Below are positions 32,553 to 35,500 of a stretch of 64,000 bases of DNA, in pieces. The stretch lies in assembly GCF_044324875.1 (NCBI RefSeq), contig NZ_CP172185.1; one strand, 5' to 3'. Source of the DNA: Escherichia coli (GTDB lineage Bacteria; Pseudomonadota; Gammaproteobacteria; Enterobacterales; Enterobacteriaceae). Within the stretch, counting starts at the first letter, position 1. Each line of letters starts with the position of its first letter. The position numbers were made by a program.

Positions 32553-35500
32553 TTAGATCAAAGGAGGGAGAATAAGCAGAAAAAGCCCGCCATAACAGCG
32601 GGCAGGAGGATTTAGAACTGATAAACCAGACCTAAAGCGACAATATCATCGGTAGAGATGCCGTTGGCAGCGTAGAAGCTGTCATCTTCATCCAACAGGT
32701 TGATTTTATAGTCAACGTAGGTGGACATATTTTTGTTGAAATAGTAAGTCGCGCCAACATCGGCGTATTTAACCAGATCTTTATCACCGTCGGTACCGAC
32801 CAAATCCTTGCCTTTAGACATCAGGAAAGAGACTGCCGGACGCAGCCCAAAATCGAACTGATACTGCGCAGTAACTTCAAAGTTCTGGGTTTTGTTGGCA
32901 ATCGTATTTGTTGAATCACCGTAAGGTGTCATGTTACGCGTTTCAGAATACATGGTCGCCAGGTAGATATTGTTAGCATCGTATTTTGCCCCGGCAGTCC
33001 AGGCGTCAGCCTTATCGCCTTTTGCGGTAGAGAATTCAGCCTGCTGGTTAGTGCGATCGGAGCTGGTATAGGCGGCACCAAAACTCATGCCCATACCTAA
33101 GTCGTAGGTAGTGGAGATGCCAAAACCGTCGCCATTGGCGTTCTTAATGTTTCGATCACCACCGTTTGCGGTACCTTCTTGCTCATGGGTGACCTGGTTT
33201 TCATTCGCGCCCTGGTACTGTAACGCAAAATTCAGACCATCAACCAGACCGAAGAAATCAGTATTACGATAGGTTGCTACGCCATTGGCTCGACCGGTCA
33301 TATAGTTATCGGCTTTGGTATAAGAGTCACCACCGAATTCCGGTAGCATATCGGTCCAGCCTTCGATGTCGTACATTACGCCATAATTACGACCATAGTC
33401 GAATGAACCCAATTCACCAAATTTCAGACCGGCAAAAGCAAGACGAGTCCAGGAATCACCTTTATCACCTTCAGAGCCATTAGCCTGCACGTTATATTCC
33501 CACTGGCCATACCCAACCAGTTGATCCGTGATTTGCGTTTCACCCTTAAAACCAAAACGCACATAAGTTTGATCACCATCACTATTGGCATTATCAGAAA
33601 AATAATGCAGGCCATCAACTTTGCCATACAGATCTAATTTGTTGCCGTCTTTATTATAAACTTCGGCTGCATGTGCAGCACCTGCGGCGAGCAGGGCAGG
33701 AATTAAAAGTGCCAGTACTTTGCTTTTCATTGAATAAATCCTTTAGTTATTTTATTTGCCTTTTCATCCCCATTTTGGGGAGTGAAAGCATCCTAAAGGA
33801 GAAGTTCAGTTAGCCGATAAATATCATTTGTTACGCCTTAAGTAAAACCTTAATCAAATAATTCTTCTGAAATGATAATAAGTCTGGTGAATGTATTGAA
33901 GATAATACATACAAAATAAAAATTATACTTTTAATTTGCTATACGTTATTCTGCGCGGGTTATATGCCTTTATTGTCACAGATTTTATTTTCTGTTGGGC
34001 CATTGCGTTGCTACTGATTTTCCAACATATAAAAAGACAAGCCCGAACAGTCGTCCGGGCTTTTTTTTAGAATTGGATAATTCTTATCCAGAGCATTTAA
34101 TCGGTGTTGCTTTTTTCCGCTTTTCCGGCCATTTGTGCCAGGAAGTCATAGCGTTTTTGCAAATCAGCTGCAGCATCTTTCCATAACTGCTCTGCCACTT
34201 CTGGCTGCTGCGAATTCAGACGACGGAAACGTTGCTCATGAAGTAACGTTTCTTCCAGTGCTTCTGACGGCGGGCGTGAATCCAGTGCCAGCGGCAGTTT
34301 GCCTTCATCGGCTCGACGTGGATCGAAGCGATATAGCGGCCAGAAGCCGGTGGCAGTGAGTTGGCGCATCTGGTCGTGACTGAGTGCCAGATCGTAACCA
34401 TGCTCTTCACACGGGCTATAAGCGATGATCAGCGATGGTCCCGGATACGCTTCTGCTTCCTGAATCGCTTTCACTGTCTGGTTCAGCTGTGCACCAAGAG
34501 ATATCTGCGCCACATAAACATGACCGTACATCATCATACTGACGCCAAGATCTTTACGCGCTTTACGTTTGCCGTGCTCGCCAAACTTAGTCACCGCGCC
34601 AAGCGGCGTGGCTTTTGACGCCTGACCACCGGTATTGGAATAGCATTGCGTATCCAGCACCAGAATGTTGACGTTTTCCGTCAAACTCAATACATGATCC
34701 AGACCGCCAAAGCCGATATCGTAAGCCCAGCCGTCGCCACCAATCAGCCAGATTGATTTTTCCACCAGTGCATCTGCGTCACGTAGCAGTTCATGTGCTT
34801 CGGCAACATCGTTGAGTTGCTGGCGTAAAGCTGCGACCTGTTCTCGACGAACCTCTGGCGTGGCGTCTGATTTCAACGCAGTCAGTAATTCCGCCGGGAT
34901 TTTATCGGCAAATTGATCCAGCAGACGCAGCACGCGGACACGGTGTTGATCGACCGTCAGGCGGAAACCAAGGCCAAATTCGGCGTTATCTTCAAATAGC
35001 GAGTTCGCCCATGCCGGTCCACGACCGTTGGCATCGGTGGTATACGGTGTAGAGGGCAGGTTACCGCCATAAATTGAAGAACAGCCGGTGGCGTTAGCGA
35101 TCAACATCCGGTCACCATAGAGCTGAGTCAGCAATTTAATATACGGCGTCTCGCCACAACCGGAGCAAGCACCTGAATATTCAAACAGTGGTGTAATCAG
35201 CTGCGATGTACGAATATCAATACGTTCCAGTTTGCTACGGTCGATTTCTGGGAGGTTGAGGAAGAAATCGTAATTGATTTTCTCTTCTTCGACATGTTCC
35301 AGGCGAGACATCATATTGATGGCTTTAATCTCTGGATTCTGACGGTCTTTCGCCGGGCAAACTTCGACGCACAGGTTACAACCGGTGCAATCTTCCGGAG
35401 CCACCTGCAAGACATATTTCTGCCCGCGCATATCACGCGATTTCACATCCAGCGAATGCAGGCTGGCAGGGGCGTTTTCCATCGCTTCAGGCGGTACCAC

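Follow-up and report, generated by a model that had tools for sequence, protein, structure and literature searches.

MicC has been a textbook example of a porin-regulating small RNA (sRNA) since 2004. In Salmonella it reportedly also targets ompD, within the coding sequence (work dated 2009), and to our knowledge E. coli has no ompD. The RefSeq annotation of E. coli K-12 MG1655 places ncRNA micC (b4427) at 1437121-1437231, between ompN (b1377) and ydbK (b1378), both on the minus strand. As relayed in PMC5745476, Chen et al. (2004) described an Hfq-dependent mechanism in which a 22-bp MicC duplex close to the ompC start keeps the 30S subunit from binding, and the same secondary account has K-12 MicC regulated in the opposite direction to MicF. 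MicF resembles MicC in that its gene, too, diverges from that of a porin (ompC-micF in K-12) and in pairing near the ribosome-binding site of another porin mRNA (PMC5745476). It represses ompF and differs from MicC in family (RF00033), sequence, target and regulation. MicC function is also summarised in a preprint (10.64898/2026.07.27.741068), and there are reports that connect the RNA with OmpC-dependent antibiotic permeability (PMC5745476, PMC7177473) and, in ExPEC, with fitness (preprint 10.64898/2026.07.27.741068).

Here we describe the micC locus in a stretch of 64,000 nucleotides of E. coli DNA, hereafter the window. The RNA found here is the known sRNA at its canonical locus, overlapped by an artefactual open reading frame (ORF), and nothing in its identification is new; its value as a discovery is accordingly small. 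Like K-12 MicC (b4427, RF00121), it has the same 5' end, 22-nt seed, stems and terminator, the same 61 nt upstream of +1 (-61 to -1 identical) and the same ompN and ydbK flanks. It differs from K-12 in two loop substitutions, 34007 A>G (nt 49) and 34012 C>T (nt 54), which are the only differences inside the RNA (107/109 bases identical, 98%), in a tail of 8 rather than 9 T, in a neighbouring OmpN that is 82% identical, and in having no Rac prophage near micC. Salmonella MicC shares the identical 21-nt seed, the hairpin architecture, the terminator and the convergent ydbK/nifJ gene with the window, whereas its middle hairpin has diverged with compensatory changes and, in the two loci compared, ompN does not lie upstream.

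Identity and limits of the micC gene

An Rfam 15 search of the complete window, run at the gathering thresholds, yielded three matches, one of which was MicC. The RF00121 match spans 33956-34076 on the plus strand and covers model positions 1-123 of 123. The cmscan score is 126.1 bits (E = 1.4e-19), where the gathering score is 90, a clearly positive result. The RF00121 model extends 3 nt upstream and a few nucleotides downstream of the RNA itself. The match and the K-12 alignment both agree with the sequence-only reading, which had proposed a MicC-like sequence of 109 nt at 33959-34067 (GTTATATGCCTTTATTGTCACAGATTTTATTTTCTGTTGGGCCATTGCGTTGCTACTGATTTTCCAACATATAAAAAGACAAGCCCGAACAGTCGTCCGGGCTTTTTTT). 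That reading had also placed the RNA in the ompN-ydbK intergenic region, divergent from ompN, and its placement holds, both neighbours being identified by their Pfam domains and by identity to K-12. The features of the locus are collected in Table 1.

Table 1. Features of the micC locus, in window coordinates.
Feature	Position	Strand	Basis or remark
ompN porin gene, 372 aa	32612..33730	-	Porin_1, E 1.6e-146
Nearly invariant block AAAATAAAAATTATAC (-46..-31)	33913..33928	+	Upstream alignment; function putative
Spurious 44-aa ORF, TTG start	33936..34070	+	Spans the micC promoter and the whole sRNA
Putative -10 hexamer TATTCT (-12..-7)	33947..33952	+	Conserved across genera
micC (MicC sRNA, 109-110 nt)	33959..34068	+	Rfam RF00121, full length; 5' end as K-12 b4427
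5' seed, nt 1-22	33959..33980	+	Pairs with ompC leader; identical to K-12
U-rich single-stranded stretch AUUUUAUUUUC, nt 24-34	33982..33992	+	Unpaired in Rfam consensus; U-rich in all aligned homologues
Middle hairpin	33993..34027	+	Stem 33993-33998 / 34022-34027; Rfam structure and compensatory changes
Spurious 63-aa ORF, TTG start, LGHCVATDFPTYKKTSPNSRPGFF...	33995..34186	+	Over MicC nt 37-110 and antisense to the ydbK 3' end
Rho-independent terminator of micC	34039..34068	+	Hairpin 34039-34062 and 8-T tail
ydbK/nifJ pyruvate:flavodoxin oxidoreductase gene, 1174 aa	34097..37621	-	PFOR domains

Both ends of the gene can be placed by comparison with K-12. In the ompN-ydbK intergenic alignment, the K-12 micC start (NC_000913.3 1437121) aligns exactly with position 33959, and the annotated K-12 end, the last T of the tail, aligns with 34068. 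An end at 34067 gives the published length of 109 nt, one T less than the K-12 RefSeq-equivalent end. The 3' end falls somewhere within the T-run, at 34067/34068, and the difference between the two is the usual raggedness of a U-tail. At the other end, primer SD2, used by Dam et al. for a micC-lacZ fusion (PMC5745476), terminates at the base matching 33958, one before 33959, which is consistent with a +1 at 33959.

Every testable hallmark of MicC is present at this locus: the covariance-model score, the full-length match, the seed, the complementarity to the target, the covarying structure and the synteny. We consider it almost certain that 33959-34067/34068 is the micC gene and that its product is the Hfq-dependent, trans-acting sRNA of about 109 nt that represses OmpC synthesis.

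RNA structure, conservation and pairing with ompC

The sequence-only reading had noted a terminal hairpin followed by a T-run, and both are there, the run of eight T occupying 34061-34068. In the middle hairpin, nt 35-40 pair with nt 64-69 and enclose a 23-nt loop that holds both differences from K-12; an AU-rich linker separates this hairpin from the terminator. The minimum free energy of the isolated RNA is unremarkable (z = -1.27), which is normal where the working part of an sRNA is a long unstructured seed.

To find related loci, we searched for exact matches to the first 21 nt, using one genome per species, and obtained 30 loci. They come from many species of Citrobacter, from Salmonella enterica subsp. 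arizonae and diarizonae, from Escherichia (E. whittamii, cryptic lineages and two records titled E. coli), from Superficieibacter and Pseudocitrobacter, and from two metagenome-assembled genomes, one labelled Raoultella and one Enterobacteriaceae. The MicC architecture is common to all 30; because the search required an exact seed, the seed columns cannot differ and are uninformative on conservation. A divergent ompN lies about 228 nt upstream in every non-Salmonella locus with enough upstream sequence, whereas ompN is absent upstream of micC in both Salmonella loci examined. Downstream, a convergent ydbK is found in every locus with enough sequence.

Conservation of structure was judged for the middle stem and the terminator on an alignment of 31 sequences. 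For the two stems together, 94.8% of cells are paired, compared with 25-54% in controls in which the 3' partner was slid by 1-3 columns. The middle stem on its own has 87.6% of cells paired across the 31 sequences, and four of its six pairs have changed on both sides in a compensatory manner; the outermost pair, for example, is U-A in Escherichia and C-G in Citrobacter. In the terminator stem, eight of nine pairs are invariant across genera and the ninth is compensatory (CG, UA). RNAalifold on a MAFFT alignment recovered the terminator alone, missing the middle stem, as the alignment is poor across the variable middle of the RNA, and the Rfam-derived stem was therefore checked explicitly.

We examined target pairing with the 5' 30 nt of MicC and the K-12 ompC leader, in a segment comprising 120 nt of upstream sequence and the first 60 nt of the coding sequence (CDS). 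These 30 nt replaced a full-length RNAduplex calculation of MicC against the leader, which ignores intramolecular structure and zips whole molecules together. MicC nt 1-22 form a duplex with K-12 leader positions -47 to -14 at -26.5 kcal/mol; since the ompC gene of this strain lies outside the window, this value rests on the K-12 target. None of 2000 shuffled controls reached that energy (mean -13.95, standard deviation 2.59). The duplex contains a perfect run of 16 bp, GUUAUAUGCCUUUAUU with AAUAAAGGCAUAUAAC, and the computed pairing matches the published MicC mechanism.

Taken as a model, transcription would run rightwards from +1 at 33959 and end in the T-run at 34067/34068, and the single-stranded 5' end (nt 1-22) would pair with the leader of ompC mRNA shortly before the ribosome-binding site. 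The resulting duplex would block 30S binding, so that less OmpC porin would be made. Hfq binding and stability would be the task of a module made up of the internal U-rich stretch and the terminator hairpin plus U-tail. The sequence features are compatible with this role, namely the U-rich 33982-33992 and the terminator U-tail, and from what is generally known of Hfq-dependent sRNAs the former is a likely Hfq contact. By analogy with K-12, we infer that the MicC of this strain would be expressed and would act in the same way.

Allelic variation and alternative readings of the locus

Of 5426 complete E. coli genomes, 5412 carry MicC and 14 give no match. In 4910 genomes it is at least 95% identical to the window sequence; in 502 it is 80-90% identical and belongs to a second class of allele, whose hairpin loop has a deletion of 5 nt (strain 755 is an example). 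The exact 109-nt allele of the window, with G34007 and T34012, occurs in one of the 5426 genomes only, that of strain MEW from an ivory gull. The YdbK of MEW differs from the window YdbK at 4 residues, so the window does not come from MEW. Five MicC matches lie on records typed as plasmids, such as the 385-kb NZ_CP141085.1.

The rarity of the allele could be taken to mean that this MicC copy is a decaying or silent relic, with G34007/T34012 and the 8-T tail marking loss of function, and the substitution at nt 49 does alter the predicted local fold of the loop. Both substitutions, however, are confined to the middle-hairpin loop, where MicC varies most between genera, while the seed, the stem and the terminator are those of K-12, as are the 61 promoter-proximal nucleotides. 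The covariance-model score is well above the threshold, and other species usually have tails of 7-8 T, so we regard a relic as highly improbable. Still less probable, in our view almost negligibly so, is that the conserved hairpin and its flank are merely the 3' terminator or untranslated region of ydbK, with no separately transcribed gene. The same hairpin is indeed also scored as a minus-strand terminator in the terminator scan, followed by GTCTTTTTAT, 35 nt after the ydbK stop. This reading nevertheless leaves unexplained the invariant 21-nt seed 80 nt past the hairpin, the conserved -10 and upstream block, the complementarity to ompC and the published K-12 transcript. With micC retained as a gene in its own right, the MicC terminator hairpin probably also terminates the convergent ydbK, to judge from its score on the opposite strand.

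A third reading, that the region encodes a small protein, either in place of the sRNA or as part of a dual-function RNA, draws on the fact that both ORFs of Table 1 exist mechanically. A few bacterial sRNAs are dual-function, which we counted in its favour. The longer ORF does overlap MicC, as the sequence-only reading had noted in calling it probably artefactual; from a start in the middle hairpin it crosses the terminator, and its final 90 nt are antisense to the last 30 codons of ydbK, so that its downstream half is antisense to conserved codons. Neither the 63-aa nor the 44-aa product belongs to a Pfam family, and neither TTG start is preceded by a Shine-Dalgarno sequence. The 63-aa frame is intact in just 3 of 33 sequences (the window, MEW and Escherichia sp. 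MOD1-EC7003), and the one additional T of the K-12 terminator tail shortens it to 28 aa and brings the other frame to 83 aa. Citrobacter, Salmonella and Superficieibacter have no equivalent ORF, and in other genera each locus has its own plus-strand ORFs over MicC, with different frames, starts and lengths. Such tblastn similarity to the 63-aa ORF as appears elsewhere arises because the sRNA and the opposite-strand ydbK codons are conserved. No CDS is annotated at its position in the RefSeq records of K-12 or MEW. The small-protein reading, to which we give only a minute probability, is already effectively refuted; the two ORFs arise from mechanical ORF calling on AT-rich intergenic sequence and are artefacts.

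The locus is useful chiefly for annotation. In the PGAP-annotated RefSeq E. coli records listed, no feature lies under the MicC match, and among the records examined ncRNA micC is annotated only in K-12; automated pipelines can therefore leave room for spurious ORFs. We recommend ncRNA micC as the label for the region and removal of the ORF calls at 33995-34186 and 33936-34070.

Upstream region and genomic neighbourhood

A simple consensus scan of 33700-34200 detected no sigma-70 promoter. The putative micC promoter is non-consensus and was placed by cross-genus conservation, using an alignment of the 90 nt upstream from 31 loci. Besides the putative -10 hexamer, the window has a weak -35, TATACT (33924-33929; TATACA elsewhere), at a spacing of 17 bp. 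The nearly invariant block at 33913-33928 overlaps this weak -35 and an A-tract resembling a proximal UP element, and a second motif, GTGAATG, is conserved at -72 to -66 (33887-33893). Both blocks are nearly invariant in more than five genera and are better conserved than the middle of MicC. Judging from their position and conservation, they may be a -35/UP element or a candidate site for a regulator of micC and ompN. The conserved upstream block is thus a modest lead toward a direct transcriptional regulator of micC rather than a finding.

Sigma-E depletion and hns inactivation de-repress both micC and ompN, and OmpR slightly represses micC, according to PMC5745476, which notes that these effects may be indirect. 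We considered a sigma-E promoter upstream of micC and rejected it: the spacing is a misfit by eye, and the intergenic region has no sigma-E core motif (PMC5745476).

The micC start lies 228 nt from the ompN start codon in divergent orientation, and micC converges with ydbK, whose stop codon is 29 nt past the T-run. Because ydbK and ompN are on the minus strand with micC between them on the plus strand, ydbK read-through past 34062-34039 would carry a perfect MicC antisense toward ompN. Co-regulation of ydbK and ompN is reportedly the subject of a 2012 paper, going by its title. From the geometry of the locus, one could propose that such antisense RNA would act as a MicC sponge or through transcriptional interference, tying SoxS/RpoS-driven ydbK(-ompN) expression to OmpC, and that 33913-33928 would be a regulator site shared by micC and ompN; we think this scenario unlikely.

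The two flanking genes differ in their relation to K-12. The YdbK protein is 99.6% identical to that of K-12 and the intergenic DNA is about 99% K-12-like. In OmpN, the differences from K-12 and the indels are clustered in a few segments, and the protein shares 96.5% identity with its E. whittamii counterpart and 96.2% with OmpN of Escherichia sp. E1V33. The ompN allele is a mosaic beside a K-12-like ydbK. In strain MEW the identical OmpN protein carries the PGAP label 'porin OmpC'.

Farther from micC, uspF directly follows ttcA (30926-31861, intact, 311 aa; junction 31862-32036). The 23-kb Rac prophage that splits ttcA and uspF in K-12, leaving a ttcC remnant, is absent from both the window and strain MEW. 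Two other sRNAs in the window score above their Rfam gathering scores, FnrS at 29042-29159 on the plus strand (134.8 bits) and McaS/IsrA at 25569-25664 on the minus strand (111.6 bits).
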